From Verrucomicrobiia bacterium (GTDB taxonomy: Bacteria; Verrucomicrobiota; Verrucomicrobiia; CAIQCK01): 64,000 bases of DNA. Below, piece after piece: positions 5,032-62,940 of this stretch. The notes below the pieces were generated by a model. That model did not search any database. It was not told the DNA's origin and saw only the letters and a list, made by a program, of their open reading frames with translations. Location: positions 126,325 through 190,324 of the forward strand of contig JBAYFL010000003.1 in the NCBI GenBank assembly GCA_041667205.1. Reading direction: 5' to 3'. Each line of letters starts with the position of its first letter. The first letter of the stretch is position 1. Position numbers and translations under genes: made by a program.

Positions 5032-5036
5032 GAGGT

Positions 5037-48810: not shown

Positions 48811-48845
48811 GTGAAGAGTTATGAGTGAAGAGTGAAGAATTATGA
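48811..48845. repeat. GTGAAGA-type short repeat cluster (AGTGAAGAGTTATGAGTGAAGAGTGAAGAATTATGA) in the sucD-sucC spacer
   Basis: Reverse complement of the TCTTCAC/TTCACTC heptamer seen at 29088. A related GAGAGTGAAGAATTA lies at 52975..52995. Confidence 0.6.
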
Positions 48846-50033
48846 TTGCTGGGCAGCGCGCACAACTTTTTCCGCTGCGTCGCCCATGCCGGTGGCGGTG
48901 ATGATCGGCAGGCCGCTGTCCTTCAGCATCTTCCTGCCCTGCTCGACGTTCGTGCCTTCGAGCCGCACGACGAGCGGCACGGGGATGTGAACGGCCTTCG
49001 CAGCGCCGACGATGCCCGCCGCCAGCACGTCGCACTTCATGATGCCGCCAAAGATGTTCACGAGCAGCGCCTTTACGTTCTTGTCGCCGCACAAAAGCTT
49101 AAACGCCGCCGTCACCTGCTCAACGCTCGCGCCGCCTCCAACGTCGAGGAAGTTTGCCGGACTGCCGCCGTAGTGCTTGATGATGTCCATCGTCGCCATC
49201 GCCAGTCCCGCGCCGTTGACCATGCAGCCGATGGTGCCGTCGAGGCCGATGTAGTTCAGGTCGTTCTTGCTCGCCTCAACCTCGCGAGGGTCTTCCTCGT
49301 TCGTGTCGCGCATCGCCGCGATGTCCTTGTGACGGTAGAGCGCGTTGTCGTCGAAGTTGATCTTCGCGTCCATCGCCAGCACGCACGGTTTGCCGTCCGG
49401 CCCGGTCGTGACGACGAGCGGGTTGATCTCCACCAACGAGCAGTCGGACTCCCAGAAGAGCCGATAGACGCTCAGCATCAGCTTCGCGCCGGCGGCGGCC
49501 AGTTCGCCAGTAAGACCGAGCGCGCGGCAGAGTTTGCGCGCCTGGAACGGCATCATGCCGAGCGCGGGGTCCACGACCTCCTTCAAAATCTTCTCCGGCG
49601 TTTTCGCCGCAACGCTTTCGATATCCATGCCACCTTCGGTGCTGGCGATGACCACCGGCCGCGACAACACACGATCCAGCAGCACGGCCAGATACAACTC
49701 GCGCTGCGGCGTAACGGCGTTGACCACGAGCACGCTGCGCACGAGCCGGCCCTGCGCGCCGGTCTGCGGCGTCACCAGCGTCATGCCGATCAGCTTGCGC
49801 GCCGCGGCGACGCATTCCTCACGCGTCCGGGCGAACTTGATGCCGCCACCCTTGCCGCGACCGCCGGCGTGGATTTGCGCCTTGATGACAATCTCCGCAC
49901 CCGATCCGAACGCGGCGACGATCTCGTCGTAACGCGCGCCCGCCTCCTCCGGCGTGCGCGCCACGCCGCCAGACTGGACCATGACGCCAAATTGCCGGAA
50001 CAGTTCCTTCGCTTGATATTCGTGGATATTCAT
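48840..50033 (-). CDS. sucC: Succinyl-CoA synthetase beta subunit (ADP-forming)
   Basis: '[17 protein letters not shown]' ATP-grasp N-terminus and full-length SucC. Confidence 0.9.
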
Positions 50034-50119
50034 CGGTTACCTAAGCACCGCAACGGTCACGCCATTGCACAAAGTTCGCGGAATCTAACACACCTCCACC
50101 ATTCCGCAACCGAAGGTTG

Positions 50120-50160
50120 AAAAAAAGCCCGCGCATTGTGGTGCGCGGGCCTTTTCGTTT
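50120..50160 (-). terminator. Bidirectional Rho-independent terminator (GCCCGCGCA-N6-TGCGCGGGC flanked by A7 / T-rich)
   Basis: 9-bp GC stem. On the minus strand it is followed by TTTTTTT, directly downstream of the lsrF-like/dhaKL operon. Confidence 0.7.
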
Positions 50161-50188: not shown

Positions 50189-51070
50189 TTACTTCTTCTT
50201 GTTCTTGATCGTCTGATAGAGGTCGAACGCTGCCTTCGGTTTCAGGTTGTCATGCACAACGCCGCGCACGGCCTGGATCATCGCGACGGGATGCTCGGCC
50301 TGGAACACGTTGCGGCCCATGTCCATGCCCGCGGCACCCTGGTCAATCGCCTCGTAGGCCATCTGGAGCGCTTCGAGTTCCGGTAGTTTCTTGCCGCCGG
50401 CGACGACGATCGGCACCGGGCAGGCTGCGGCGACCTTCTCGAAGCCGGGCTTGCAGTAGTAGGTCTTCACGACGTGCGCGCCATTCTCCGCGATCACCCG
50501 CGTCGCAAGTCCGAGGTAACGCGCGTCGCGCACCAGTTCCTTGCCAACGGCGTTCACGCCGAGCGTGGGGATGCCGACGCGGTTGCCGGCGTCAATCAGT
50601 TGCGTGAGGTTGCGGATCGTCAGCGCCTCGAACTTGCCGCCGATGGCCACCATCGCAGCCATCAAACAGGCGTTCAGCCGGATGGACTCCTCGATGTCCA
50701 TGACACACTCGTCGTTCAGGTCGGTCAGGATGGTCGAGCCGGCTGAAACGCGCAAAGCGACGGGTTTGTTCGAGGTGGGCGGCACGATCTGCCGCAACGC
50801 GCCGCGCGTGCACATGATGCAGTCGGCGTAGGGAATCAGCGGCGTGATCGTCAAGTCCATGCGCTCCAAGCCAGAGGTCGGGCCCATGATGTAGCCGTGG
50901 TCGAACGCCAGCATGACGGTGCGGCCACTCTTGGGGTTGAAGACGCGCGAGAGGCGGTCTTTCATGCCCCACTCAACGTGTCCGAGGCCCTTAAGGAAAA
51001 ATCCTTCGGTCTTCTGCGGAACGCCAATTCCGTAATCCTTGGCTTCTTGGTTTCCTGCTGCTTCTGCCAT
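50189..51070 (-). CDS. Class I aldolase of the LsrF/DhnA (FbaB) family
   Basis: Near-colinear with LsrF: 'TVMLAFDHGY', 'IVPPTSNKP', 'VKTYYCKPGFEKVAAACPVPIVVAGGKK', 'GAAGMDMGRNVFQ'. Confidence 0.75.
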   Translation of the reverse strand: MAEAAGNQEAKDYGIGVPQKTEGFFLKGLGHVEWGMKDRLSRVFNPKSGRTVMLAFDHGYIMGPTSGLERMDLTITPLIPYADCIMCTRGALRQIVPPTSNKPVALRVSAGSTILTDLNDECVMDIEESIRLNACLMAAMVAIGGKFEALTIRNLTQLIDAGNRVGIPTLGVNAVGKELVRDARYLGLATRVIAENGAHVVKTYYCKPGFEKVAAACPVPIVVAGGKKLPELEALQMAYEAIDQGAAGMDMGRNVFQAEHPVAMIQAVRGVVHDNLKPKAAFDLYQTIKNKKK

Positions 51071-51165: not shown

Positions 51166-51816
51166 CTACTGCACTGCTTCTGCGAAACCCGCAAAAATGT
51201 AAGAGATCGAAGTCGCGCCGGGATCGGCGTGGCCGAGCGTGCGGTCGCCGAGGTTGCGGGCGCGACCGAACTTCGCCGTCATGTCTTTCGTGGCCTGCAC
51301 GCCACGCGACGCGGCCTCCGCGGCCTGGCGAAACGCTACGGAGACATCCGCGCCGCTGCCAGCGGCAGCGCGCAACGCGTCCACCGACGGCACGAGCGCG
51401 TCAATCATCGTCTTGTCGCCGGGCTGCGCTTTCGTCTGCTGGCGCAATCCCGCCACGCCGGCCTCGAACATCGTCGCGACCGCCGCCACATCCAGTTCCG
51501 CCGCGCTGCCCGCGCCTTCGCTCAAGCCAATGAAGAAAGAGCCGAGCAACGGGCTGGTCGAGCCGCCGTCCACGCTCATCACGTCCCAACCGACCTTGTT
51601 GAGCAACTCGGCGATCTTGCCGCTGGTGTCGCCTTTCGCGGCAGCTTCGGCAGCGTCCATCACGCGGCAGATGGTCATTCCATGGTCGCCGTCACCGGTG
51701 GCGGAATCGAGTGCCGAGAGTTCTTTCTCCGCGGCGCGAATTTTTCCCGCGGCGACTTCGATCATGCGGACGATGACATTTGAACCGATGGTTTGCATAT
51801 CTTGGTAACCCGCCAC
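51166..51816 (-). CDS. dhaL: Dihydroxyacetone kinase ADP-binding subunit
   Basis: 'DSATGDGDHGMT', 'AQPGDKTMIDALVPS', 'GHADPGATS' DhaL motifs. Confidence 0.8.
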   Translation of the reverse strand: MAGYQDMQTIGSNVIVRMIEVAAGKIRAAEKELSALDSATGDGDHGMTICRVMDAAEAAAKGDTSGKIAELLNKVGWDVMSVDGGSTSPLLGSFFIGLSEGAGSAAELDVAAVATMFEAGVAGLRQQTKAQPGDKTMIDALVPSVDALRAAAGSGADVSVAFRQAAEAASRGVQATKDMTAKFGRARNLGDRTLGHADPGATSISYIFAGFAEAVQ

Positions 51817-51857
51817 TCCGTGGCGGTTCGCCCGCGACGGAGTCGCGGGTTACTGAG

Positions 51858-52859
51858 TTATCTCACCGTCATATACGGCGCGTCGCAGGGCGCGTCCCAA
51901 TACTTCAGCATCTCGTCATCCATCTTCGCGACGAACATCTGGAAGCCGCCCATCTCCTGCACTGTCAGGTATTCGCCGACGCGGGCGCGCGCCAGCACGA
52001 CGCCTTTCTGCGCGAGCACCTGCCCGACACGGCGCATGACAATGAACTGCTCCATCAGCGTCGTCGAGCCGGCGCCGTTGATGATCACCAGCACCTTGTC
52101 GCCCGCCTTGGCTTTGACGGCTTCGATCAACTGCGTCACCATGATCTCCGCCGTCTCGTTGGCGCTCTTCATCTTCGAGCGTCCCGTGCCGGCCTCGCCG
52201 TGCTGGCCCATGCCTATCTCCATCTCGTCGTCGGCCAGCGCGAAGATGGACTGGCCGCTCGCCGGATGCGTCGCCGTCGTCAACGCCACCGCGAGCGTGG
52301 CCATGTTGTTGTTGAACCGCTCCGCCAGCGCGAGCACCTCGTCGAGGCTCTTGCCAGCCTCCGCGGCGGCGCCGGCGATCTTGTAAAGCGGGATGCAGCC
52401 AACGAGACCGCGGCGGTTCTCGGCGGGAGCGTTCGCGCCGGGAGCGATGTCCTCGTGCGTGAGGATGCTCTTGACGTTGAGGCCCGCTTTCTTGGCCATC
52501 TGCATGGCGATGTTCGAACTCATCACGTCGCCCGCGTGGTTGAGCACCACCAGCAATGTCCCCGCCGGGCGGTTGACCTGCTTGAGCGCGTCGAACACCT
52601 TCGGCGCGGCGGGCGCGGCAAAGATGTCGCCCACGACGCTGATATCGAGCATGCCCTCACCGACGAACCCGCTGAGCGCCGGCTCGTGGCCCGCGCCGCC
52701 GAGCGTGACCAGCGCCACCTTCGACGGGTCCTTCGCACGCGCGCGGCAGACGAGTTTCTCGTTCTTCAACGCCACCTTGTCGCTGTAAGCGAGGGCAAAG
52801 CCCTCCAGCAACTCCGGCGTGAGGTTCTTCGGGTCGTTGATAAATTTCTTCATAGCCAT
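51858..52859 (-). CDS. dhaK: Dihydroxyacetone kinase dihydroxyacetone-binding subunit
   Basis: 'MKKFINDP', 'KVALVTLGGAGHEP', 'MGQHGEAG' (active-site His) colinear with E. coli DhaK. GGAGAA RBS. Confidence 0.85.
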   Translation of the reverse strand: MAMKKFINDPKNLTPELLEGFALAYSDKVALKNEKLVCRARAKDPSKVALVTLGGAGHEPALSGFVGEGMLDISVVGDIFAAPAAPKVFDALKQVNRPAGTLLVVLNHAGDVMSSNIAMQMAKKAGLNVKSILTHEDIAPGANAPAENRRGLVGCIPLYKIAGAAAEAGKSLDEVLALAERFNNNMATLAVALTTATHPASGQSIFALADDEMEIGMGQHGEAGTGRSKMKSANETAEIMVTQLIEAVKAKAGDKVLVIINGAGSTTLMEQFIVMRRVGQVLAQKGVVLARARVGEYLTVQEMGGFQMFVAKMDDEMLKYWDAPCDAPYMTVR

Positions 52860-53059
52860 GGCTGTTGTTCTCCTCTGCTAGTCGTGTTCCGCGTCAGGAA
52901 AAGCGCCCGTGTTCTTACAAGGTTCCACCGCCGATGCCAAGCGCAGTTTCAACAGGAAAATTAAGAGTTCAGAATTGAGAGTGAAGAATTACAGACACGA
53001 AAAGAGCGCAAAGATCCCGGAACTCTTAACTTCTCATTCTTAATTCTCCGTCGCCCTAC

Positions 53060-54007
53060 CTACCTCTCTCCCGCCATCGCCTTGCCGCTGGCGTCCAGCT
53101 TCTGCACGGCCATCATCGTGCCGGCGAGCTTCGGGTCGGACAGGTGCCAGACGAGTTTCTTGTCGCGCGTGATCTCCAACAAGCCGGAGCCAATGGTGGC
53201 GCAAGCTTCCTGCTTGCGGTCATTGGGATTCGCAAGCTGGAAGCTTGCGCCACTCTTTTCGTAAGCGCGATAGCAACCGGTGACGATGTTGCCGTTGGGC
53301 AACAGGTGCAGAGCGGTCATGTTGGTGATCTTCACGCCGGGGATGTCGGTGTTGGCGAACTCCCAAACCACCTTGCCGGCGGCGTCGAACTCCAGCAGCC
53401 TGGCCAGCGACGAGACAAGCGTGGTTCCCTTCCCCGTGCGGACGGCGGCGAAGGCGATGGCGGGCGTCTTAAGTTCGAGGACGACGTCGCCCTTGGGCGT
53501 GTATTCCTTCACCACGTGCGCGCCGGAATGGCAGACAAGATAATTGCCGTTCTTGAGCTTGCGAGCCATGCGCATGTTGTGATGCGCGCCGACCGTAGCC
53601 GGCTGGGTCTGCAACTCGAACACCACCTTGCCGGCCGCATCCGCCTCCAGCACCTTGCCGGTGGAGTTCTCGCCGACGAGCGTGTTGCCGTTGTCGAGCC
53701 GCTGGCAGGAAAAGGTGCCGCCGCCTTTTTGCTCGGGCGATTTGTATTGGAAGACGACCTTGTGGTCGGGTGTCACCTCCGTCACCGTCGCGCCGTCGGC
53801 AAAAAGGACGTTGCCGTTCGACAGCATCCATGCGTCGTGAGTGAGCGCCGTCGGATGCTCCCACTCCACCGCGCCGGCCGCCGACAGAATCATAACCCTT
53901 CGGTCGCCCGCGGCGAGCAACTGCCCGCCGACCTCACCCGTAATGCCCACCCCGCAGCACACCGCCGCCGTCCACAACCACGCCATCACCTGTTTCATCA
54001 TCCCCAA
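53060..54007 (-). CDS. Secreted beta-propeller hypothetical protein
   Basis: Signal peptide, then repeated 'GK.VFEL/WEF' blade-like repeats; no catalytic motif. Confidence 0.45.
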   Translation of the reverse strand: MGMMKQVMAWLWTAAVCCGVGITGEVGGQLLAAGDRRVMILSAAGAVEWEHPTALTHDAWMLSNGNVLFADGATVTEVTPDHKVVFQYKSPEQKGGGTFSCQRLDNGNTLVGENSTGKVLEADAAGKVVFELQTQPATVGAHHNMRMARKLKNGNYLVCHSGAHVVKEYTPKGDVVLELKTPAIAFAAVRTGKGTTLVSSLARLLEFDAAGKVVWEFANTDIPGVKITNMTALHLLPNGNIVTGCYRAYEKSGASFQLANPNDRKQEACATIGSGLLEITRDKKLVWHLSDPKLAGTMMAVQKLDASGKAMAGER

Positions 54008-54102
54008 CCGTTATCGGATTTCGCGAAAGAAGTCAGGCACAGCTTTCACCACCATCCGTGCTGGCTTCGACTAATACGCATTCTCCATCAGATAATGTCA
54101 TT

Positions 54103-54954
54103 CTACTGTCCATGTTTCTTGCGGAATGGAAAATCTAAAGGACCGCTGGGCGTAAATAATCGTATGGCAAGATTGTATTCAGTATCTGATGGAACATTTT
54201 TATCATTTGCCCCGAAACGAGCGAATATTTTGACCCACGCTCCGGGTAACAACTGATATGCTGACTCAGCAAGATGTAGTTTGTGATCAGGTGGCACTGA
54301 GAAAGCCTGGGTAGAAATATATTCGTCCCCAAAAAGCCTAGGACTCAACCTGTGCAAATACCAACCGGCAGGGGCTACTATGCCAAACTGGAAATCTTGA
54401 ATTTGGATAGTTCGTTCTTCCGAATTCTTGATAGAAACGTCGAATCCAGACCAGTGTGGCTGTTCTTGTGTGCTTTCAACCAGAGGATTCGCAACTATTC
54501 GAGTTCCGTTAACAAAACACTCTAATGTTGGATTAAAGAACCGTTTAGCCTCCTTTGGATTCTCCACAAACCATTTAACGCGTTTGAAAAGCTCAGACTT
54601 CAAATCGGTGATGCGATTATCGTGGACGATGTGAGGATAATGTTTGAGATCAAACGGGATATCATCAGCTTTTGCAGTTAGAAGAATAACGCGCTTCCCC
54701 AGAGCGTGCGCATACCCAACCTCATAGAACACGTTCGGATTACGACCTGTCATTTCCGCAATAATTAAGTCTGCCTTTGCAATCTGGTTGTAAACTCTTT
54801 GCAGGATGCTCTCCTCAAAAATCTGCTCGTCAACACGTTCGCAATGGGCGTCAGCATCACCGCAAGCCGCCTTGATGCCGAGTTCATAAAGGTCGTCGAA
54901 GAATTTCTCAAACGGCATCAGTGTGAAAACGAATGGTTTTGGCTGAGTTTCCAT
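54103..54954 (-). CDS. Nucleoside 2-deoxyribosyltransferase-like (NDT/TIR flavodoxin-fold) domain protein with unknown C-terminal domain; candidate defence effector
   Basis: Residues 1-120: 'FVFTLMPF..' and 'ADLIIAEMTGRNPNVFYEVGYAHALGKRVILL' (NDT core with conserved Glu). Gene GC is about 45% against about 64% flanks. Confidence 0.5.
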   Translation of the reverse strand: METQPKPFVFTLMPFEKFFDDLYELGIKAACGDADAHCERVDEQIFEESILQRVYNQIAKADLIIAEMTGRNPNVFYEVGYAHALGKRVILLTAKADDIPFDLKHYPHIVHDNRITDLKSELFKRVKWFVENPKEAKRFFNPTLECFVNGTRIVANPLVESTQEQPHWSGFDVSIKNSEERTIQIQDFQFGIVAPAGWYLHRLSPRLFGDEYISTQAFSVPPDHKLHLAESAYQLLPGAWVKIFARFGANDKNVPSDTEYNLAIRLFTPSGPLDFPFRKKHGQ

Positions 54955-55381
54955 AATTCGGAGCGATTAATAGTTTGCCGTGCTTAGGGCGACGGTGAAG
55001 CTGCTGTTGGTGGTGATGCCGGCTTGCCGCCAGTGGGCGTCGTTCGTGGGGCCGGCGTCTATGACCTCGCCGTTATGGAGTTGGCTTGGATCGAAGATTG
55101 GCATGTCTCGGCCCTTTCCTCATGGGCGGTTTCTACCGCAGCAGGCGAAGAAATGGAAACAAATTCTCCGCCCCGAAAAATGCGAAAGGACGCGAAAGGG
55201 GGGAAGCTGTCAGTTGTCGGCTGTCAGCTTTCAGCTTTGGGCAAGCGACGGTCGGAGACCGCCGGCGTAGGCCGGGTCCCCGACCCGGCGTAACCGTCAT
55301 CGCCACGTGTGGGCACGTGGCCTACAACGAGATCGGCGGTCATAGACCGCCGCTACAGGATCGGCTGACGGCTGATTCTCG

Positions 55382-58300
55382 TCACTCCTCGATAATGACG
55401 CGGAAGCCGACGTTGTAGGGGCGCTGCCAGTTGGGGACGGCGAGACGGAAGGCGGAGCGCGCGAACTTGGGGCGCTCATACCAGGAACCGCCGCGGACGA
55501 CTTTGTTGCCGGGGAGGTTGGCGTCGTTGGCACCGGCCCCGTCGCTGTAGGGATAGGGGCGGAAGTTGGTGAGGGTCCACTCGCGGGCGTTGCCGTGCAT
55601 GTTCTTGAGGCCCCAACGATTGGCGGCGAAGGCGTCCACGTCAGCCAGCATCAGGACGCCGTCGTTGAACCGCTCTTCCTTGGGGATGAAGTCCCAGAAC
55701 TTGTCGGGGTTCTTGATCGGCTTCGGGTCCACGCCGCTGACGGCCATGAGGCTGAGGGATTTGTCGCCGAGGTTTTCGAGCACGGAGAAGTCGGTGTCGA
55801 GGGTGCCGTAGTTCATGGCGGTGTCGGTGCCGGCGCGGCAGGCCCATTCCCATTGCGCCTCGGTCGGCAGGGTGACGCGCTTGCCGGTCTTCTGGGCGAG
55901 CCACTGGCAGAACTTCATCGCGCCATCCCACGAGATGCGGATGACGGGCAGCTTCGGGTCGTCCATCGAGTAGCCGGGGTTGACCTGGTCCTTGTAGTGG
56001 CGGTCGTAGTAGCCGTTCTTGTGCGCGGGGTTGAACGCCTGATATTGCGCGAGGGAAACTTCGGTGACGGCCATCCAGAACGGTTTGGCGACGCGCACGG
56101 CGGCGGTGGGCGATTCGTCGGGGAAACCGTTCACGTCGCCCATGACGAACTCGCCGGCGGGGATGCGCTTGAACTTCATCGTCAGGCCGCCGCCGATATC
56201 GAGGGTCATCTCGGTGTTGCCGAGCGCGGCCTGTATCTGCGCGGCTTTGGCGGCGTCGAACGGCCAGTTCTTGGCAGATGGGAGATGGGAGTTGGGAGAT
56301 GGAGTCTTGGCGGGTTCCGGCGCGGGCGGGACGAACGCGAGGCGCTGGGTGTAGTTGACCGGGATCGTTTCGATGTCCTCGTCCACGTTGGCGTAGAGTT
56401 TCTTCATCTCGTAGCGGCGCTTCTCGAAGTTCTTCGGGATCTCGCGCGCCTCGTGCCACGTGCCGTAGCAGGGAACGTTGAGGTCAATCCACGTGATGAT
56501 GCGGTCCCAGGCTTCGGCGTCGAGCTTGACGTTATGGTGGCCCTTCTGGAGCATCTGCACCAGTTCGCTGGTGTTGGCGTGAAACTCAAGCGGCGCGAGG
56601 AGGCTGTAGTCGCCTTCGGGGCCGTTGCGGCGCACGAACGGGTGCAGCGCCAGATACGAAGCGGGCAGCGGCGAGCCAGTGGTGGTGCGGACGATGTTGG
56701 TATCGGCGAAGTTCGGCTGCGTGGCGATCTTGCCGTCGTGGCAGCCGACGCAATACTTGTCGAGCACGGGCTGCACCTCGCGCACGAACGCGAAGCCGCG
56801 CTTCGGGCCGCGCCACGGAGCGGGGACGGATGGCGCGCTGCGCGTGGCATCGCTGGGGTTGAGAGTGAGCGAGTAGTTCTGCTGCTCATGGCAGCCGGTG
56901 CACGAGATGTTTTCGCCTGGCATGCCGACAAACCAGCTACGCATCTGCTGCAGCGCCTTGCCCTCAGCGTCGAGCGGCTGGATGGCGATCGGGATGTTCG
57001 CGGGAATCTCGAAGAACGCCGAACCGTCGGGATGAACCGGCACGGTGCCGATGATCCGCCGCACGTCCCACGGGCCTTCCATGCCGACGAAGTAGTGGCC
57101 GCCCATGTTCCGGTAGGAATACTCATACTGAAAGAGGCGCAGCGACTTGACCGTGCCCGGCGGAACGCCCGCCAACCCGCGGCCCGCGGTGATGTCCTGA
57201 ATGGAAACCGTGGCGGTCTTCTTGTCGAGGTCCACCTTGTCGGGGATGACTGGCGGCGGCGTGGTCTTGCGCAGCGGGATCGGCTCGAACATCGCCTGGC
57301 CCGGCTGCTCTTTCAGCAAGATCATGTTGTCGAAGATGTCCACGAGATAAACGCCCCAATTCGCGCGCGGGTCGGGCTTGCAGGAAACGAGGAACTGTTT
57401 GTCACTCAGCGGGAACGGATGCAGAAACTTCGGCCACGAGTCGTTCACGAGACCATCCTTGATCACCGCCTCGACCGGTTTGCCGTAGCCGGGAATTTTC
57501 TGGACCGCGCCGGCGCCTTCCTGCCGGCCCTTGGAGGCATCGAAGATAACCAGTTCGCCAGCGCGCGCCACGCCGTGATGGCCGGAGATGACCGCGCTGA
57601 ACATCGAGGGCTTGCCCGGCAGCGGCTTGGCGTAGAACATCGAGTTCGGCCAGTAGCTGTTGCTGCCGTAGAACTCCTGCTGGCGCGTGCCGTCCGGGTT
57701 CATGTGCATCATCACACGGCTGAAGTAGTGCGCCGAATCGGTGTATTCCCAGCGCAGATACATGACGCGGCCGTCCTCCATCATGGTGGGATACCAGTCG
57801 TTGTCTTGGTCGAACGTGAGCCGGCGGATGTTGCTGCCGTCGGCGTTCATGATGTGGAGGTTGGCGACGTAATCGCTGCCGCCGACGCACGGCACGCCTT
57901 GGAACGTGGAGCTTGAATCGAAGATGATGCGCCCGTCGGGCAGATACATGCCGTCGTAGTTGTCTATGTCGTCGTATTCGCCGCGCGACACCTGACGGAG
58001 GCCGCTGCCGTCGAGCTTCATTTCGAAAATCTGCCAGCGGTCATTGGAACCGATGGATGAGAACAGGATGCGCTCCCCGTCGAAATGGAGCCGCATGTCG
58101 CCTACGAACACATCTTTCTTCGGTTTGTAGATGCGCTGCAACAAGGGGTTCTTCTCACGGATAGACATCGCAGCAACTTCGTTGACGGTAGCAGGGTTGA
58201 CACTGGAATTGCCCTGCCAGTTTGCGGGCAAGCCGAGCCGGCTGCCGTCGCGCTTGACGAGCAGGATTTTGTCGAAATCAATCACCGGATTATTGATGAT

Positions 58301-59383
58301 CAACGCCTCGCGTTGCAGGCTGTCGCAGCGCGCGCCGAACTCCACGATGGCCTTGTCGTCGCCGTCCGTCAGCGCCTTCTGGATGGCGGGCATCTCCTTC
58401 TCGATGGCGTCGAGCTGTGCGAGGTAAGTCGCGGCGTTCTTGTATTTGTCGGGATAGGTTTTGGCCAAATCCTCGATGGCGAGCCGCATGGCTTTTGTGT
58501 TGAGCGACTTCAACAACACCGTGGAATCTTCGAGTGCCTTCGCCTTGCGCGCGACCGTGAGGAACAGGTCGAGCCAAGCAGAATCGGAAGAAGCGGTCTT
58601 GTTCTTGACCAACTCGTCAAGCCGCGCACTCTCCGCAGTCGCACCGGTCTTGAGCTTCCGCACCATCGAACCAATCACGCCGCGCTCCTGCCCTGCATTC
58701 GCGTCGTCCATGAACCACCGTTGATAACCGGAGAAATACGTCGTGAAGAGCTGGTTCTCATTGCCAAACGTCCCCTCAAGCTTCGCCAGTTCCGTTGAGA
58801 CGACGGGGCCGCTGGAATAGAAGAAGCTGCTGTTCTCATTCGAGCAGTTGATCCTGACCAGCAAATCGTTCTTTCCCTTGGCGAGGTCGAGAGTGATCTT
58901 TGTGCGCGAGTTGTCCGGCTTCTCCTTCGCAAGAACCTGCTTCTGGTTCAGCCAAACCGTGAAGCTGTCCGGACTGCCCAGTTCCACAACAAGCTTCGCC
59001 GGCTCCTTCGAGATGAGGGTGCGGTATGCGTAGGTGGCGTTGTTGGCCGCGCCTTTCACCCACACTGGCTGACCGTCGGTCCAGTTCACCGAGTTCCAGA
59101 GCGACTTCTTGCCACCGGCCAGCTTTGCCTTCAGGTCAACGCATTGTTCCGGCTCGATGTTGACATTGCGGCTCTTCTTCATTGGCCGCAGCGGCTCGGT
59201 GGAAAACCAGTTAAGCTCCTCAACGCCCTTGCGCACGTCCATGACCTGCTGGCGAAGGTTGTGGATGGATTTATTCCATCCAGCCGACACCGGCTCGGCA
59301 GCGTGACCCAACGATGCGAACGCACTCCAACCCATCGCAGCCATCGCCACCAGTGTTGCACCAACACGAACGAATATCTTCAT
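55382..59383 (-). CDS. 1333-aa secreted multidomain protein: N-terminal beta-sandwich, TolB/HzsA-like beta-propeller, two CxxCH haem-c motifs, C-terminal FGE-sulfatase (SUMF1/EgtB/PvdO) domain
   Basis: Signal peptide. Propeller region 'ILFSSIGSNDRWQIFEMKLDGSGLRQVS...RIIFDSS'. 'CTGCHEQ' and 'CVGCHDG'. C-terminus 'RVVRGGSWYERPKFARSAFRLAVPNWQRPYNVGFRV' is the FGE signature. Confidence 0.7.
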   Translation of the reverse strand: MKIFVRVGATLVAMAAMGWSAFASLGHAAEPVSAGWNKSIHNLRQQVMDVRKGVEELNWFSTEPLRPMKKSRNVNIEPEQCVDLKAKLAGGKKSLWNSVNWTDGQPVWVKGAANNATYAYRTLISKEPAKLVVELGSPDSFTVWLNQKQVLAKEKPDNSRTKITLDLAKGKNDLLVRINCSNENSSFFYSSGPVVSTELAKLEGTFGNENQLFTTYFSGYQRWFMDDANAGQERGVIGSMVRKLKTGATAESARLDELVKNKTASSDSAWLDLFLTVARKAKALEDSTVLLKSLNTKAMRLAIEDLAKTYPDKYKNAATYLAQLDAIEKEMPAIQKALTDGDDKAIVEFGARCDSLQREALIINNPVIDFDKILLVKRDGSRLGLPANWQGNSSVNPATVNEVAAMSIREKNPLLQRIYKPKKDVFVGDMRLHFDGERILFSSIGSNDRWQIFEMKLDGSGLRQVSRGEYDDIDNYDGMYLPDGRIIFDSSSTFQGVPCVGGSDYVANLHIMNADGSNIRRLTFDQDNDWYPTMMEDGRVMYLRWEYTDSAHYFSRVMMHMNPDGTRQQEFYGSNSYWPNSMFYAKPLPGKPSMFSAVISGHHGVARAGELVIFDASKGRQEGAGAVQKIPGYGKPVEAVIKDGLVNDSWPKFLHPFPLSDKQFLVSCKPDPRANWGVYLVDIFDNMILLKEQPGQAMFEPIPLRKTTPPPVIPDKVDLDKKTATVSIQDITAGRGLAGVPPGTVKSLRLFQYEYSYRNMGGHYFVGMEGPWDVRRIIGTVPVHPDGSAFFEIPANIPIAIQPLDAEGKALQQMRSWFVGMPGENISCTGCHEQQNYSLTLNPSDATRSAPSVPAPWRGPKRGFAFVREVQPVLDKYCVGCHDGKIATQPNFADTNIVRTTTGSPLPASYLALHPFVRRNGPEGDYSLLAPLEFHANTSELVQMLQKGHHNVKLDAEAWDRIITWIDLNVPCYGTWHEAREIPKNFEKRRYEMKKLYANVDEDIETIPVNYTQRLAFVPPAPEPAKTPSPNSHLPSAKNWPFDAAKAAQIQAALGNTEMTLDIGGGLTMKFKRIPAGEFVMGDVNGFPDESPTAAVRVAKPFWMAVTEVSLAQYQAFNPAHKNGYYDRHYKDQVNPGYSMDDPKLPVIRISWDGAMKFCQWLAQKTGKRVTLPTEAQWEWACRAGTDTAMNYGTLDTDFSVLENLGDKSLSLMAVSGVDPKPIKNPDKFWDFIPKEERFNDGVLMLADVDAFAANRWGLKNMHGNAREWTLTNFRPYPYSDGAGANDANLPGNKVVRGGSWYERPKFARSAFRLAVPNWQRPYNVGFRVIIEE

Positions 59384-59561
59384 AGCTCTGTTCCTGTGCT
59401 CAGAAAAAATCGCGGCATCATTTCCAATAAACCGCCCTCAAGGCGAGCGAAAACCACTGCGACCTTGGTAGGAATCAATAACGACGGGAAGAAATAGCGG
59501 ATGACCTATTCCCAAGGCTGTAGGGCAACCTTGGCGATCCATTAACGCCGCGCTACTTCAA

Positions 59562-61847
59562 CTACGGGTTCAGCTTGTGGGAGTTTTCCCCCACTTGTTT
59601 GCGCCCGGTGATTTCGCGGGCCACGTGAACACTCCCGGTAAGTTTCCCTTCCGAGTCGTGGAGTGGCGTAGTGCTCACGATGAAGTCTCCACCGAGCCGT
59701 TCTTCATGAACCTCTGCAGTGTGTCCAAGCCCATCCGCAAGCAATTGCTTGTGCGGGCAAAAGTCTGGTGGCTGGTCCGTGCCGTGGACAACGCGATAGC
59801 ATCTTTGCCCAACACACTGGGCAGGCGTGACGCCCAATCTGGCCGCCATGGCTTTGTTCGCGCGAACGACTCGATGCTCGCTGTCAATGATGGCAATAAG
59901 GTCGGGCACGGCGTCAAATGTTCGTTCCCAATCCTCCTTGGCGCGACGAACCGTTTCCTGCGCTTCCTTGAGTTCCGTGATATCGCACAGCATGCCTTCT
60001 GTGGTCACCAATTGCCCGGACTCATAAACCGGTATCCAGCGGTCCTCGATGCACTTCAACGTTCCGTCTTTGCAGAGCCACCATTCCTCGTCGCGCACCC
60101 CGACCACTTCCATCGGTTGCGTCTGTAATCGCATCAGGCGGCTCTTTTGCGCCTCAAAATCCCCCTTCTTGATCACCCGCGTCAGAAAGGCCACACGTCC
60201 ACCCTCGTTGTGAATGTCCTCATGTGTGTAGCCAAGCATCTTCTCAAGAGCCGGGCTTAGATAACGGAACTCTCGTGTCCGCATGTCCACGCTGTAGAGC
60301 ACTTCCGGGATGTTGGCGGCGATGCGGCGAAATTTCTCCTCACTCTGACGCAACGCTCCCTCAGCCAGTTTGCGATCGGCAACCTCCCGTTCCAAGTCGG
60401 CGGTGCGTTGCCGCACTCGCAATTCCAACTCGTCCCGCGATCGGCGTAACGCCTCCTCCGCCTTCCTGCGTTGAGTAATATCGCGGGCAGTGGCGAACAC
60501 GCCGCGAACATTGCCGGCCGTGTCTTTACAAAGGGTTGCGTTGTAGAACACGTCCATCAGACAGCCCGACCTGTGTCGGATGGAGAGCAGGCAGTCGGCA
60601 ACCGATCCCTGCGCAAACACCTGCTGATGCACAGTCCGGACTTTATCAGGCTCCGTGAAGTAATTGGAAAACTCCTTCCCAATGAGTTCCTCGCGCGAAA
60701 CTCCGGTTGCCATTTCCGTGGCGCGATTCGCGTCGCTAATCCTGCCGTCGGCGGCGATGGTCACCATCGGGTCCAAGCTGGCCTCAATGAAGCTGCGCGC
60801 ATAGACCACCGTATTGGCCACCTTCTCCTCTGCCTGCTTCCGGCCAGTAATGTCCCGATTGACGCCCACCATGCGCAGCGGGTTCCCTGCGGCATCGAAA
60901 TGAACTTCGGCCCTCATCTGGATCCAGCGGACGCTGTTGTCCGGCCAGATGATTCGAAACTCCGTGTCGAACTGTCCGTTCTTCCGGGCTTGCTCAAATA
61001 CCTCATTTACCGCCTTTCGGTCTCCAGGGTGAATCCGCTGCATCCAATTCTCCCATGTTCCACCCAAGCCGAGTTTGGACACACCGTAGAGCGCCTCCAG
61101 CAGTTCGGAGCAAACCAGTGTGTTCGTTGGGTAAAAGTATTCAAAGTGCCCGATGCGTCCGGCCTTTTGCGAAAGCTCCAACCGTTCGTAACTTCTTGCC
61201 AGCTCTTCCCCTACCCGTTTGCGATCAGCAAGATGCTGGAGGGTCGTGTAGCTGACCCAAGTGAGAAGGACAAGCATCACCATGTTCAGCGCCGTGGTCA
61301 TCAGCGTTGCGAAATGGGCGCTGGTCTTGGATCGCTCCTCGCGCTGATCTAACAACTGCTGCTCTTCATCTTCCATGGCGGTCGTCACCACGCGGATGAG
61401 ATCCATCAACCGCTGGCCTTCTTCAAGTCCATTAAGTCGTGACGCAACTTCGATGCCCTCTTTCTTCAGCGTGCTGATGCAGGTCTGCACGACTTTGATC
61501 TTCGCCAAGATAAGCGGCTCCAGTTTGTCCAGCCGGCGTTGCTGATTTGGCTCGGCTGCGGTCAAGGCGCGCAATACCTTGAGATGTTCGGGCACCCTCG
61601 GCAGCGCAACCTGATATGGCTCAAGAAATACTTCGTTGGTGCTGATGACAAAACCACGCACGCTGGTCTCGATGTTCATCAAGTCGGTCAGCAGACTTCC
61701 TGCGTTTTTCAGCACCTGATGACTGTGGTTGACCGCATCTGTCGTTTTGATGAACTCCGTCGTGCTGCGATAGGAAATGAACCCAATGGCTATCAGCGCA
61801 AGCGCGGCCACCAAAAAACTTCCTATGATTCTCGCTTTGAACATCAT
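59562..61847 (-). CDS. CHASE3-domain sensor with four PAS/PAC domains and no output domain
   Basis: N-terminal TM, CHASE3 ('VRGFVISTNEVFLEPYQ') and a second TM, then four PAS repeats each followed by 'DITxRKQAEE'-type PAC ends. The ORF terminates without HisKA/HATPase/GGDEF. An alternative GTG start lies at 61865. Confidence 0.65.
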   Translation of the reverse strand: MMFKARIIGSFLVAALALIAIGFISYRSTTEFIKTTDAVNHSHQVLKNAGSLLTDLMNIETSVRGFVISTNEVFLEPYQVALPRVPEHLKVLRALTAAEPNQQRRLDKLEPLILAKIKVVQTCISTLKKEGIEVASRLNGLEEGQRLMDLIRVVTTAMEDEEQQLLDQREERSKTSAHFATLMTTALNMVMLVLLTWVSYTTLQHLADRKRVGEELARSYERLELSQKAGRIGHFEYFYPTNTLVCSELLEALYGVSKLGLGGTWENWMQRIHPGDRKAVNEVFEQARKNGQFDTEFRIIWPDNSVRWIQMRAEVHFDAAGNPLRMVGVNRDITGRKQAEEKVANTVVYARSFIEASLDPMVTIAADGRISDANRATEMATGVSREELIGKEFSNYFTEPDKVRTVHQQVFAQGSVADCLLSIRHRSGCLMDVFYNATLCKDTAGNVRGVFATARDITQRRKAEEALRRSRDELELRVRQRTADLEREVADRKLAEGALRQSEEKFRRIAANIPEVLYSVDMRTREFRYLSPALEKMLGYTHEDIHNEGGRVAFLTRVIKKGDFEAQKSRLMRLQTQPMEVVGVRDEEWWLCKDGTLKCIEDRWIPVYESGQLVTTEGMLCDITELKEAQETVRRAKEDWERTFDAVPDLIAIIDSEHRVVRANKAMAARLGVTPAQCVGQRCYRVVHGTDQPPDFCPHKQLLADGLGHTAEVHEERLGGDFIVSTTPLHDSEGKLTGSVHVAREITGRKQVGENSHKLNP

Positions 61848-61917
61848 CTTGTCTGACTCAGACACATACCAAAAATCCCTCGATGCCGCCAGTTATCTCG
61901 CACTGGCCGGCCGTTCT

Positions 61918-62940
61918 CTATTCCAGCGGCTGCGCGCCAACTTTGGCAATCCATTGGCGGGCAAACTCGGCACCGGGAACGCCCACGTCGAGCACTGTGT
62001 TGGCTAGGAAGATCATCTCGTGAATGCGCCCGGCCTTGAGCCACTTCAGACCCAGCTCGCACTGGTGCTGCATCAACTCCTGCGGCACCGGCCGGGCGTT
62101 GTGGTAGTCCCAGATATACAGCCCCAGCGCAATGCGCGCCTTCTTCGGCGCTATCTTCTCCAACGCCGCCATGTTCTCCTCCAGCGCCACCAGCTCGTCG
62201 GAGTTCCACGTCCAGAGCGTAAGCACGTCGAACAGGTCGAGATACTCCGCCAGTGGCGGCTCGCAGCCGCGAAACACCGGCGACGTCGTCTTGCGCGGCG
62301 GCGTGATCTCGTGTGTATAGAGCGTGATCCAGACATCCATCGGCCGGCCGACGGATTTCAACCGCTCGCGGGCCTGCTTTAACTCCGCTGGTTGCAGCGC
62401 GGGGCGGCCGGCGATGCGGCCATCGGGCTGCTTCTTGGCATCTATGATGAAGTCGTCGAGATAGATGCCGCAGATGTTCGGAAACTTCTTGGCGAGTTGG
62501 ATGACGGGCTGCAACTCGCCCAAACCGCCCTTGCCGCCGCTGCCGACGACGGACCAGACGACGCGGTCGAGCGGCTGGAACGACGTGGCGTATTGCTCGA
62601 ACGAACTCTTCGCGCGCCACTGCTGGCTGCCGGGCAGCGCGGGCTGGTCGTGGCTGCGGATGAGCAGCAGGTTCGGCACGTTCAGCCAGAACGCCCCTTC
62701 CGCCGGTGTCATGCGCGAGCCGCCACGGACATTGGCCCGTTCAAGGTAATCGTTGTCGCCGCCGGCGTAGACCGTGAAAATCCAAAACCGATCCCGCACG
62801 GTGTTGCGTTTTGATTTCCCATGCGAAGCCGCCTCCGGTTCCGCCGCACCCGCGCTGCCGGCCATTGCCGTTAATCCCGCCGCCGCCGCGCCGAGTAAAG
62901 TGCGACGGGAGATTGCTGTTTGAGGCTGGTTCTGGAGCAT
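61918..62940 (-). CDS. Tat-signal hypothetical protein (possible TIM-barrel glycosidase-like)
   Basis: 'SRRTLLGAAAAGLTAMAGSAGAA' twin-arginine leader; no motif recognised. Confidence 0.45.
   Translation of the reverse strand: MLQNQPQTAISRRTLLGAAAAGLTAMAGSAGAAEPEAASHGKSKRNTVRDRFWIFTVYAGGDNDYLERANVRGGSRMTPAEGAFWLNVPNLLLIRSHDQPALPGSQQWRAKSSFEQYATSFQPLDRVVWSVVGSGGKGGLGELQPVIQLAKKFPNICGIYLDDFIIDAKKQPDGRIAGRPALQPAELKQARERLKSVGRPMDVWITLYTHEITPPRKTTSPVFRGCEPPLAEYLDLFDVLTLWTWNSDELVALEENMAALEKIAPKKARIALGLYIWDYHNARPVPQELMQHQCELGLKWLKAGRIHEMIFLANTVLDVGVPGAEFARQWIAKVGAQPLE

Follow-up and report, generated by a model that had tools for sequence, protein, structure and literature searches.

The 64 kb stretch of Verrucomicrobiia DNA analysed here (the window) carries a gene whose product joins an export signal, a beta-propeller and two CxxCH motifs to a domain with the fold of the formylglycine-generating enzyme (FGE), which raises the question of what such a protein does and whether sulfatases have any part in it. 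The open reading frame starts with ATG (Table 1), and the coordinates, the strand and the four parts named in the first-pass annotation (signal peptide with N-terminal beta-sandwich, propeller, CxxCH pair and FGE-fold domain) were all recovered from the sequence itself, Pfam and AF2/Foldseek; a fifth part, a helical bundle of ~170 aa (aa 195–363), had been missed. The product matches exactly NCBI MFA6561067.1, from a Verrucomicrobiia MAG, and belongs to a family named automatically in the databases as "SUMF1/EgtB/PvdO family". The pairing of PF18582 with PF03781 is present in 120/120 of the best database homologues listed, far beyond chance, and the family occurs in at least 576 species-level genomes of Verrucomicrobiota, Planctomycetota, Hydrogenedentota and others, all of them MAGs. 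The 1333-aa fusion is thus a real, widely conserved, exported and as yet uncharacterised protein.

Table 1. Features of the fusion gene and its neighbours (window coordinates).
Feature	Position	Strand	Basis
Whole gene, exported HZS-alpha-like/FGE-like fusion protein, 1333 aa	55382..59383	minus	ORF; PF18582 + PF03781
Signal peptide, aa 1-28, predicted cleavage after GHA	59300..59383	minus	sequence read by eye; low-pLDDT N-terminal helix in model
Jelly-roll beta-sandwich, aa 54-191, sugar-binding-domain-like	58811..59224	minus	
Helical bundle, aa 195-363	58295..58801	minus	AF2 secondary structure, pLDDT >90
Beta-propeller, aa ~372-705, HZS-alpha N-domain/TolB-like	57269..58270	minus	AF2; Foldseek 5c2v_A and TolB
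HZS_alpha middle domain PF18582, aa 743-833, first haem motif at its end	56885..57157	minus	Pfam E 4.2e-32; HMMER alignment
CxxCH-1, CTGCH, aa 828-832, aligned with HZS haem alpha-I motif CSGCH	56888..56902	minus	
C-terminal haem domain of HZS-alpha-like module, helical, aa ~860-1000	56384..56806	minus	AF2; profile match to 5c2v_A residues 640-692
CxxCH-2, CVGCH, aa 878-882, aligned with HZS haem alpha-II motif CAMCH	56738..56752	minus	
FGE-fold domain PF03781, aa 1073-1330, PvdO/PorK-like	55394..56167	minus	Pfam E 1.2e-39; Foldseek PvdO TM 0.76, FGE 0.69
Loop aa 1303-1308, site of Cu-binding Cys336/Cys341 in FGE, here Glu...Ala	55460..55477	minus	
Exported ~315-aa beta-propeller, PDB 3no2-like, conserved operon partner	53060..54007	minus	profile vs 3no2 E 1.5e-25; Pfam; co-occurrence
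DhaK (Dak1) kinase subunit	51858..52859	minus	Pfam Dak1 E 1e-105; co-occurrence
DhaL (Dak2) kinase subunit	51166..51816	minus	Pfam; NCBIfam DhaL 153 bits > cutoff 138
LsrF-grade 3-hydroxy-5-phosphonooxypentane-2,4-dione thiolase, DeoC/LacD fold	50189..51070	minus	NCBIfam NF006081 446.7 bits, cutoff 297

The hydrazine synthase alpha-like module

The top PDB match of the AF2 model (aa 361–1333, pLDDT 85.8) in Foldseek is the large, alpha subunit of the anammox hydrazine synthase (HZS) of Kuenenia stuttgartiensis (kuste2861; 5c2v chain A), with an E of 2.8e-26 over 786 columns and a TM of 0.61, TolB being a weaker structural match. Both proteins follow the same three-domain plan of propeller, PF18582 and C-terminal haem domain, and are colinear in all three (HMMER; profile E 3.8e-11), with the PF18582 region aligned to residues 454–561 of 5c2v_A and both CxxCH motifs in register; the C-terminal haem domain also gives a Cytochrome_CBB3 match, below the Pfam threshold. 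It had been overlooked that the propeller, PF18582 and the two haem sites are parts of a single, complete HZS-alpha-like unit. The architecture checks proposed with the first-pass annotation gave PF18582 at aa 743–833 (E 4e-32) and PF03781 at aa 1073–1330 (E 1e-39) in Pfam, and the AF2 model places the CxxCH motifs in the HZS-alpha-like module, the second one in a small helical haem domain. The spacing of 80 aa between them has to be corrected to 50 aa (aa 828 and 878).

Conservation was evaluated in 121 sequences with a lowest identity of 48%. Positions kept in at least 95% of them account for 34% of the propeller, 45% of the middle domain, 40% of the haem II domain and 31% of the FGE domain, 2% of the helical bundle and 0% of the jelly roll, which is optional within the family. 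The proposal of an extracytoplasmic c-type haem protein, which was to fall if orthologues lacked the CxxCH motifs, is upheld by the signal peptide, by the presence of both motifs in 121/121 homologues and by their register with haem alpha-I and alpha-II, where haem would be attached. Residues C499, H552, H602, H603 and H655 of the propeller, H763, and H914 and H949 of the C-terminal haem domain are likewise invariant (121/121).

Like HZS alpha, the family is exported and often encoded beside a beta-gamma-like partner. However, identity to HZS alpha is 16% and the NCBIfam hydrazine_alpha score is 53 bits against a family cutoff of 800; the fusion protein adds the jelly roll, the helical bundle and the FGE-like domain; its host does not belong to the anammox bacteria, and the operon contains carbon-catabolic genes. 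The position of Tyr591, the HZS haem alpha-I ligand (PMC12758564), is occupied by Asn in 116/121 family members and, with this Tyr absent, haem I is probably an ordinary His-ligated c-haem.

The FGE-fold domain

The FGE fold had been described as normally that of a cytoplasmic or ER copper oxidase, a description that does not suit this C-domain, whose nearest solved relatives are PvdO, a periplasmic protein, and PorK/GldK, a lipoprotein of the T9SS. PvdO of Pseudomonas aeruginosa (PDB 5hha) has the FGE fold and is required in the periplasm for the final oxidation step of the pyoverdine chromophore. No other protein matches the C-domain better, in single-sequence comparison (E 3.6e-13) or in structure (TM 0.76), and its aligned loop likewise has no Cys. 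In contrast, the C-domain reaches only 74 bits where the PvdO family cutoff is 500, and PvdO is a stand-alone protein of ~290 aa with no haem module, while no pyoverdine genes are found here.

With FGE itself (SUMF1/FGE; PDB 1y1e, 6s07) the C-domain shares the fold (TM 0.67–0.69) and family motifs such as RGGSW and GFR, but it is exported, has no sulfatase partners and lacks the copper-binding pair: Cys336 of human FGE aligns with Glu1303 (Asp/Glu in 118/121) and Cys341 with Ala1308 (Ala/Ser in 119/121). Absence of this pair from the C-domain was named in the first-pass annotation itself as a finding that would refute its claim. A copper-type FGE redox centre is thus not supported, and any redox chemistry must come from the haems or from another site. 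Its view that the protein is not a sulfatase maturase holds, since sulfatases gave 0 Pfam matches among the window ORFs scanned and are not conserved as neighbours.

Genomic context

The decisive clue lies in neighbours that had gone unremarked, DhaK, DhaL and the LsrF-grade thiolase. The thiolase scores above the NCBI equivalog cutoff (Table 1), matches E. coli LsrF (3gkf) with an E of 2e-112 (378 bits) and keeps the Schiff-base Lys context; the ~315-aa propeller shows faint arylsulfotransferase-like matches. These four genes are the ones of the operon retained in the window, where the cluster is interrupted by a TIR-like gene and no beta-gamma-like partner, cupin or VOC gene is found within the 64 kb nor 5.4 kb past its end.

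The NJ tree shows the operon in two deep clades, which include the sister groups of the window clade. Its genes encode an IclR regulator, the exported propeller, a cupin of lyxose-isomerase type that is likewise exported, a glyoxalase-like protein, DhaK/DhaL, the LsrF-grade thiolase and an HZS-beta-gamma-like di-haem protein, and lie on the same strand with short gaps in loci L010, L015, L002 and L085. DhaK/DhaL/LsrF lie within 10 kb of the gene in 13 of the 19 long-form loci having both flanks of at least 6 kb; they are missing from the other 6, from 16/17 short-form loci with adequate flanks, and from the vicinity of the gene throughout a large Pirellulales/Planctomycetaceae clade. The cupin belongs to the D-lyxose/D-mannose isomerase family (7nzo, E 6e-25), with TAT or Sec signals on nearly all orthologues, and the VOC protein is glyoxalase I-like (E 2e-5). 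Transporter genes are missing from the operon. The di-haem partner, absent from this window, has the HZS beta-gamma fusion as its best NCBIfam match and also matches Pfam CCP_MauG. It shares with the di-haem cytochrome c peroxidase (CCP)/MauG family two CxxCH motifs, here invariant, and a conserved Trp motif, its NWDLLNDG and PYLHDG being presumably of CCP/MauG type, but carries in addition a fused propeller of the 7-bladed type, in which it resembles the HZS beta-gamma fusion of Scalindua.

An LsrF-grade thiolase is shared with the autoinducer-2 (Lsr) pathway of enteric bacteria (LsrK kinase, LsrG isomerase, LsrF thiolase). Since the operon likewise supplies a kinase and candidate isomerases, the Lsr end reaction, P-HPD + CoA -> DHAP + acetyl-CoA, is plausible here by analogy. 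However, DhaK/DhaL takes the place of LsrK, and the candidates for the isomerase in place of LsrG are the periplasmic cupin and the VOC protein; neither the LsrACDB transporter nor LsrR is present in the operon, which is linked to haem proteins of large size in the periplasm. The neighbours thus appear to tie the fusion gene to sugar or hydroxy-ketone breakdown and not to sulfatases or anammox.

Homologues of HZS alpha and beta-gamma with key HZS residues not conserved are known to be co-localised in non-anammox bacteria (PMC12758564), and the possibility of a 'broader enzymatic family with alternative substrates' has been raised (PMC10732223). These homologues (clades I–IV, Hagglund et al. 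2025, PMC12758564; 'hzs-like', PMC10732223) pair alpha-like with fused beta-gamma-like genes in Planctomycetota and other phyla, and the supplementary hit table of PMC12758564 includes an FGE-fused member (MBT5814978.1). The FGE fusion, the jelly roll and the operon with DhaK/DhaL, LsrF and cupin are mentioned in neither paper, and what clades I–III are linked to is instead FG-GAP proteins and binding proteins of the ABC type. The association with IclR, cupin, glyoxalase-like protein, DhaK/DhaL, LsrF-grade thiolase and beta-gamma-like partner is a newly recognised context.

Proposed role and alternatives

The reading that we favour, with slightly better than even confidence, makes the protein the alpha-like subunit of a multi-haem oxidoreductase that works in the periplasm and feeds a pathway of the LsrF type. 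The protein would reach the periplasm by Sec export, its core (aa ~372–1000) representing a complete HZS alpha homologue in which the middle domain would bear haem I (C828/C831/H832) where it meets the propeller, and the small helical domain haem II (C878/C881/H882). To this core are fused a variable sugar-binding-type jelly roll and the helical bundle at the N-terminus and, at the C-terminus, the strongly conserved FGE-fold domain, which has lost the copper site and resembles periplasmic PvdO/PorK. A hydrazine-synthase-like complex would be formed, in many relatives, with the adjacent beta-gamma-like protein (beta-propeller plus CCP/MauG-type di-haem). Haem I and the propeller pocket with its invariant Cys and His residues would constitute the catalytic site and haem II an electron relay, while the jelly roll and the FGE-like domain may hold the substrate, putatively a carbohydrate-derived compound and not a nitrogen oxide or a sulfatase. 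The chemistry would then run towards the thiolase: the product would be handled by the exported cupin, imported, phosphorylated by DhaK/DhaL, possibly isomerised by the glyoxalase-like protein and finally cleaved by the LsrF-type enzyme to DHAP and acetyl-CoA. Such phosphorylation and cleavage suggest delivery of a C5 hydroxy-diketone that resembles DPD/HPD (AI-2 type), or of a closely similar molecule.

The MauG-like features of the partner could also point to protein maturation. As MauG matures methylamine dehydrogenase, partner and fusion protein would build a cross-link or a protein-derived cofactor into the exported 3no2-like propeller or the cupin, the FGE-like domain gripping the peptide as FGE grips the CxPxR peptide. 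The FGE fold does bind peptides, the gene is always adjoined by small proteins that are exported and whose chemistry is unknown, and the partner gives, besides CCP_MauG, sub-threshold NCBIfam matches to MauG and MbnH and a weak one to quinohaemoprotein amine dehydrogenase beta. This role is nevertheless unlikely: the FGE catalytic Cys pair is missing, the propeller pocket, large and highly conserved, looks more like a site for a small molecule, the analysis found no residue as a candidate for modification, and neither a conserved small precursor-like gene nor radical-SAM or protease maturation genes lie nearby.

Another reading is that the HZS-like module and its partner convert small nitrogen compounds (NO, hydroxylamine, hydrazine or an amine), as true hydrazine synthase does, with the sugar genes as mere neighbours. 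In its favour, the entire HZS-alpha fold and both haem sites are preserved, and the HZS beta-gamma fusion and beta subunit are the partner's best family matches. A RidA/FkbO-like protein adjoins the gene in about 6 loci, and the solved FGE-fold relatives include ToxD, from the pathway of toxoflavin, which has an N-N bond. Such a nitrogen-cycle enzyme is quite unlikely, however, given the low hydrazine_alpha score, the 171 bits of the partner against an NCBIfam cutoff of 1250, the Asn in place of Tyr591, the conserved Trp-containing NWDLLNDG read as CCP/MauG-type, the hosts (Verrucomicrobiota, Hydrogenedentota and similar phyla) and a tight same-strand operon with isomerase, kinase and thiolase.

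Equally doubtful is a role confined to electron transfer or to the organisation of a complex, the protein being then a periplasmic di-haem cytochrome with the FGE-like domain as a structural ring or adaptor, as PorK/GldK, and the propeller as a TolB-like interaction platform. PorK/GldK are the top profile matches of the C-domain (E 4e-26), the propeller matches are TolB-like, and PvdO and PorK are not known to have catalytic residues; but the near-invariant third of the propeller (34% of positions), including a His/Cys cluster, is more typical of an active site than of a scaffold, and T9SS or Tol-Pal context is lacking. A periplasmic sulfatase maturase drawing its oxidising power from the haems is very improbable and already contradicted, in spite of the Pfam FGE-sulfatase match, the source annotations 'formylglycine-generating enzyme required for sulfatase activity' and one relative (L001) with two sulfatase genes 4.5–7.5 kb away, by the family-wide loss of the Cys pair and the sulfatase results given above.

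Several points speak against the favoured reading: the absence of the beta-gamma-like partner, the cupin and the VOC gene from the window, the TIR-like gene within the cluster, the loci lacking DhaK/DhaL/LsrF, the missing transporter and the apparently anaerobic life of many hosts. The FGE-like domain, too, could have no more than a structural part, like that of PorK.

Architecture of the exported HZS-alpha-like fusion protein

The gene of the hydrazine synthase (HZS)-alpha-like/formylglycine-generating enzyme (FGE)-like fusion protein, carried by a Verrucomicrobiia MAG, was found exactly where the first-pass annotation had placed it. Pfam assigned residues 743–833 to HZS_alpha (PF18582, E = 4.2e-32) and residues 1073–1330 to FGE-sulfatase (PF03781, E = 1.2e-39), with a sub-threshold cytochrome c match at residues 868–893. 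The two CxxCH motifs, CTGCH (residues 828–832) and CVGCH (residues 878–882), are spaced by 50 residues and not by the 80 reported earlier. The N-terminus, MKIFVRVGATLVAMAAMGWSAFASLGHA/AEP, was read by eye as a Sec signal peptide with no lipobox. Judged from its sequence, the polypeptide is predicted to be exported and its conserved CxxCH motifs are features of a c-type cytochrome. All NCBIfam matches were sub-threshold, namely HZS alpha (NF052339, 53 bits against an equivalog cutoff of 800), PvdO (NF051459, 74 bits against an equivalog cutoff of 500), PorK/GldK (TIGR03525, 72 bits, cutoff 350) and TolB (22 bits, cutoff 343). No pyoverdine (pvd) genes are present in the window, T9SS genes were not seen, and the signal peptide lacks the lipobox Cys expected of the lipoprotein PorK/GldK.

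Two AlphaFold2 models were built with family alignments, covering residues 361–1333 and 1–420. The former (mean pLDDT 85.8, pTM 0.85) has as its top PDB match in Foldseek the Kuenenia HZS alpha subunit (5c2v_A; E = 2.8e-26 over 786 columns, target-normalised TM 0.61, 16% identity), TolB being a weaker structural match for the propeller. The next matches, at the C-domain, were PvdO (TM 0.76) and FGE structures (TM 0.67–0.69). The HMMER alignment of residues 391–1040 to 5c2v_A is colinear over the propeller, the middle domain and the C-terminal domain, with CTGCH in register with CSGCH of haem alpha-I and FVREVQPVLDKYCVGCHDG in register with FRRDIQPILDAKCAMCHDS of haem alpha-II (motif pair CVGCH/CAMCH); with a family profile the match improved to E = 3.8e-11. 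Therefore, the propeller and the two CxxCH motifs form one unit, a full HZS-alpha-like module, in which both motifs, whose fold the first-pass annotation had left to structure prediction, fall at the positions of haems alpha-I and alpha-II. The multi-part architecture proposed earlier is borne out by the two Pfam domains, the CxxCH pair and this structural match, and the parts it named are all present, but a helical bundle (residues 195–363), seen in the model of residues 1–420 (pLDDT 87.7), had been missed.

Several long antisense ORFs, which arose from greedy longest-ORF calling in high-GC DNA, were rejected. The 773-residue frame at 55595–57916 (+), inside the target, is a high-GC artefact and no gene, as are further long antisense ORFs in the window; those at 51780–52964 (+) over dhaK, at 48846–50120 (+) over the sucC-like gene and at 53144–54256 (+), as well as "unk379" over lsrF, were discarded on tblastn and precomputed gene calls. 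A promoter and terminator scan of 52800–62000 returned sites no more numerous than in shuffles and was not used.

Features of the window discussed in the text
Feature	Coordinates	Strand	Remarks
Type II restriction-modification pair	4072-6668	plus	AccI-like endonuclease and N6 methyltransferase
680-aa fusion	14211-16253	plus	unusual; phosphonate-type ABC substrate-binding domain and PQQ_2/BamB-like beta-propeller
SucD-like gene	47835-48806	minus	ATP-grasp_2 / Ligase_CoA pair with SucC-like
SucC-like gene	~48840-50033	minus	ATP-grasp_2 / Ligase_CoA pair with SucD-like
LsrF-like gene (DeoC family)	50189-51070	minus	
DhaL	51166-51816	minus	
DhaK	51858-52859	minus	
3no2-like propeller	53060-54007	minus	
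TIR-like gene	54103-54954	minus	283 aa; GC ~0.54 (low); PADLOC TIR effector, E 8e-10; TIR-like / nucleoside 2-deoxyribosyltransferase-like domain
Target	55382..59383	minus	ATG start; 1333 aa
CHASE3-PAS protein	59562-61865	minus	767 aa; CHASE3 and multiple PAS
340-aa gene (unk340)	61918-62940	minus	TAT-type signal SRRTLLGAAAAGL

Conservation of the haem and FGE-like domains

The first homologue search gave 778 matches, the best 120 of which all carry PF18582 and PF03781 (48–88% identity), and the alignment comprised 121 sequences. Conservation of the CxxCH motifs in orthologues had been proposed beforehand as a test of the haem assignment; both are invariant (121/121), and so are C499, H552, H602, H603, H655, H763, H914 and H949. 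Positions conserved in at least 95% of the sequences make up 31% of the FGE-like domain, 34% of the propeller, 45% of the middle domain and 40% of the haem II domain, and on this measure the FGE-like domain is constrained as much as the haem domains. The jelly roll (0%) and the helical bundle (2%) are variable, the jelly roll being absent from 31 of the 121 members.

In HZS the iron of haem alpha-I is ligated by alphaTyr591, at +4 from the CxxCH His, and the motif His binds Zn together with alphaCys303 (PMC12758564, PMC12607021). The target family keeps H-(E/D)-x-Q-N following the first haem motif, and the position equivalent to Tyr591 is occupied by Asn836 (Asn in 116/121); the neighbouring Tyr837 is unconserved. 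Residue 523, in the propeller (window 57815–57817) and a possible counterpart of the Zn-binding Cys303, is Thr in the target, with Cys in 107 of the 121 members and Thr in 12 others.

A human FGE segment, exact in PDB chains, was used to align the C-terminal domain. The copper-binding pair of cysteines, whose absence the first-pass annotation had named as a refuting result, was not found: Cys336 aligns with Glu1303 (Asp/Glu in 118/121) and Cys341 with Ala1308 (Ala/Ser in 119/121). The Cu(I)-binding pair is thus missing family-wide in the alignment, and the target shares the PF03781 fold with FGE but neither its Cu-binding cysteines nor its link to sulfatases. A search for sulfatase genes nearby, also suggested earlier, gave no match in any window ORF scanned. 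Two sulfatases lie near the homologue at locus L001, but this proximity is not conserved and the link was therefore rejected. The earlier interpretation holds as regards an extracytoplasmic haem protein that is not a sulfatase maturase, but not as regards an FGE-type copper redox domain. The names under which databases list these proteins, among them [quoted passage not shown] and "nonheme iron enzyme", are misleading. The protein combines an exported HZS-alpha-like module, two conserved haem-c motifs, a strongly conserved FGE-fold domain devoid of the copper site and an optional jelly roll of sugar-binding type.

Genomic context across loci and in the window

Precomputed gene calls around homologues at 82%, 56% and 48% identity placed Dak1 and Dak2 nearby in all three and a DeoC-family gene in two. 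When 86 loci, including the window, were searched by tblastn with seed proteins, Dak1 was found at 25, Dak2 at 24, the DeoC-family gene and a ~220-aa protein at 23 each, a ~105-aa protein and a ~600-aa propeller–CCP_MauG (beta-gamma-like) protein at 16 each, a ~300-aa propeller at 10 and an IclR regulator at 7. Where both flanks of a locus extend for 6 kb or more, the Dak/DeoC module accompanies 13/19 long-form genes versus 1/17 short-form genes. Complete operons lie on a single strand with short gaps, and at three loci (L010, L002 and L085) the order is IclR, set off from the rest, then HZS-alpha-FGE, propeller, 220-aa, 105-aa, DhaK, DhaL, DeoC-family and propeller-CCP. In the NJ tree the operon occurs in two deep clades, one of Verrucomicrobiota, holding the window protein and its sister groups, and one of Phycisphaerae/Hydrogenedentota, while a large Pirellulales/Planctomycetaceae clade is without it. 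The linkage to an LsrF-grade thiolase, DhaK/DhaL, a periplasmic cupin, a VOC protein and an HZS-beta-gamma/CCP-like di-haem protein is anciently conserved.

The window DeoC-family product scores above the NCBIfam cutoff for 3-hydroxy-5-phosphonooxypentane-2,4-dione thiolase (NF006081, 446.7 bits against 297), matches E. coli LsrF (3gkf) over residues 6–288 (E = 2e-112) and keeps the context of the Schiff-base Lys (vvKTYY, iiKTYY in LsrF); it is accordingly a predicted LsrF-grade enzyme. DhaL is above its equivalog cutoff and DhaK below (309 bits, cutoff 406). The 220-aa proteins are sugar isomerase cupins of the D-lyxose/D-mannose type (7nzo, E = 6e-25; 2y0o, E = 4e-24), and nearly all of the orthologues bear a TAT motif (S/T-R-R-x-x-x-G-G), a Sec signal or a lipoprotein signal, which indicates a periplasmic location. 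The 105-aa proteins, which lack a signal peptide, are of a glyoxalase-I/VOC-like type (E = 2e-5). For the ~300-aa exported propeller the sole match was the uncharacterised structure 3no2 (E = 1.5e-25).

Other arrangements were also seen. At locus L087 (1519–8890) three genes stand in tandem, encoding a beta-gamma-like protein (560 aa), an HZS_alpha protein without FGE (817 aa) and an HZS_alpha-FGE fusion (1054 aa), next to uxaC and a GH10 gene. At L003 (13989–16065) and 5–6 other loci, in a subset of the operons, the beta-gamma-like gene is followed by two more, one for a 358-aa protein that joins an FkbO/Hyg5-chorismatase-like part to RidA (L-PSP), the other for an exported NHL/SGL-type propeller of 308 aa.

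In the window the target, the propeller, DhaK, DhaL and LsrF are retained together on the minus strand; genes for beta-gamma-like, cupin and VOC proteins occur neither in the window nor in the next 5.4 kb past its end. The TIR-like gene, an insertion, separates the target from its conserved propeller partner; since the orthologous locus L001 (82% identity) carries two Pentapeptide-TIR genes on the same side, this gap may be a hotspot at which defence-like genes insert. Only in the window clade do SucC/SucD-like CoA-ligase genes immediately follow the LsrF-like gene, on its strand; they could represent a housekeeping succinyl-CoA synthetase or an ADP-forming ligase that takes up the acyl-CoA produced by LsrF. 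Upstream of the target, the CHASE3-PAS protein, with no recognisable output domain, is encoded between it and the 340-aa gene, whose product gave no match in Pfam, NCBIfam or the PDB. Proximity of the 340-aa gene to the target, on its upstream side, is confined to the Verrucomicrobia clade closest to the window (5 loci including the window), in which cupin and VOC genes are not nearby; at three loci (L005, L006 and L008) the gene directly adjoins the target homologue.

Proposed function, relation to hydrazine synthase and distribution

The target is proposed to act as the alpha-like subunit in an HZS-like multi-haem oxidoreductase of the periplasm, which would provide a small hydroxy-carbonyl compound for a route of isomerase, kinase and thiolase ending in DHAP and acetyl-CoA. 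With an LsrF-grade enzyme at the end of this route, the most parsimonious guess is that a C5 hydroxy-diketone of the DPD/HPD type, of the autoinducer-2 family, is imported. On our own chemical reasoning, the role of LsrK would fall to DhaK/DhaL and that of LsrG to the VOC protein, the cupin or both. Erythrulose or a triose (glyceraldehyde/DHA) as the downstream substrate would rank below a DPD/HPD-type molecule, since the aldolase-family gene is LsrF-grade and not a generic aldolase. The mechanism is weakly constrained. In a wider and tentative reading, complexes of HZS-like alpha and beta-gamma haem proteins would be widespread, unrecognised periplasmic multi-haem enzymes of carbon metabolism; here, equipped with the sugar-binding jelly roll and the FGE/PvdO-like domain, the complex might turn a substrate derived from glycans or pentoses into a hydroxy-diketone of the DPD/HPD type (autoinducer-2-like), which a non-Lsr route of periplasmic cupin isomerase, DhaK/DhaL, VOC protein and LsrF would then process. 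Were this so, such haem machinery would be the pre-existing kind from which anammox hydrazine synthase evolved.

The ~600-aa partner has a signal peptide, two invariant CxxCH motifs and conserved NWDLLNDG and PYLHDG stretches, which we take to be the Trp and haem-pocket motifs of CCP/MauG proteins; its best NCBIfam matches are the HZS beta-gamma fusion (171 bits, below the cutoff of 1250) and then the beta subunit. That the system serves protein maturation in the manner of MauG is improbable. The target resembles HZS-alpha in having the propeller, the PF18582 middle domain and the C-terminal c-haem domain in the same order, but it lacks a Tyr at the alphaTyr591 position and falls far below the 800-bit equivalog cutoff; nitrogen-compound chemistry is accordingly improbable. 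A purely electron-transfer or scaffold role is improbable too.

Hydrazine synthase, the origin of which is debated, was long held to occur in anammox bacteria alone. Distant HZS homologues have been found with no function assigned (PMC12758564, PMC10732223). In non-anammox bacteria, homologues of alpha and beta-gamma are co-localised, form clades I–IV and do not conserve key residues, and HZS was proposed to have arisen from haem proteins already present in the periplasm (Hagglund et al. 2025, PMC12758564); the hzs-like genes have also been suggested to be a broader family with alternative substrates (PMC10732223). The main text of PMC12758564 does not mention the FGE fusion, Dak genes or sulfatase-type domains, and an FGE-fused member appears only as an 80-bit match in a supplementary table, so that the family was known to databases and noticed in passing. 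A literature search for hydrazine synthase together with formylglycine returned only an unrelated metagenome survey, and searches for LsrF with DhaK/DhaL (dihydroxyacetone kinase) and for lyxose isomerase with dihydroxyacetone kinase returned nothing relevant. The fusion and its operon context appear to be undescribed within the literature searched, and the family is a variant of a kind already known but functionally uncharacterised. It offers the first concrete functional lead for non-anammox HZS homologues, resting on a conserved operon whose last step is recognisable, the LsrF-type cleavage to DHAP and acetyl-CoA, and thereby a testable path, with known substrates and assays, to the function of HZS-like enzymes beyond anammox. 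If the pathway handles DPD-type molecules, autoinducer-2-like turnover would be indicated for PVC, Hydrogenedentota and Sumerlaeota bacteria.

A second protein search gave 1,763 protein clusters at E <= 1e-50, among which no cultured carrier was found, every named source being a MAG. In a scan of one genome per species, relatives of the target were present in at least 576 species-level genomes, from phyla that include Verrucomicrobiota, Planctomycetota (Phycisphaerae, Pirellulales, Gemmataceae), Hydrogenedentota, Sumerlaeota and Lentisphaerota; MAGs labelled Nitrospirales are also among the carriers.
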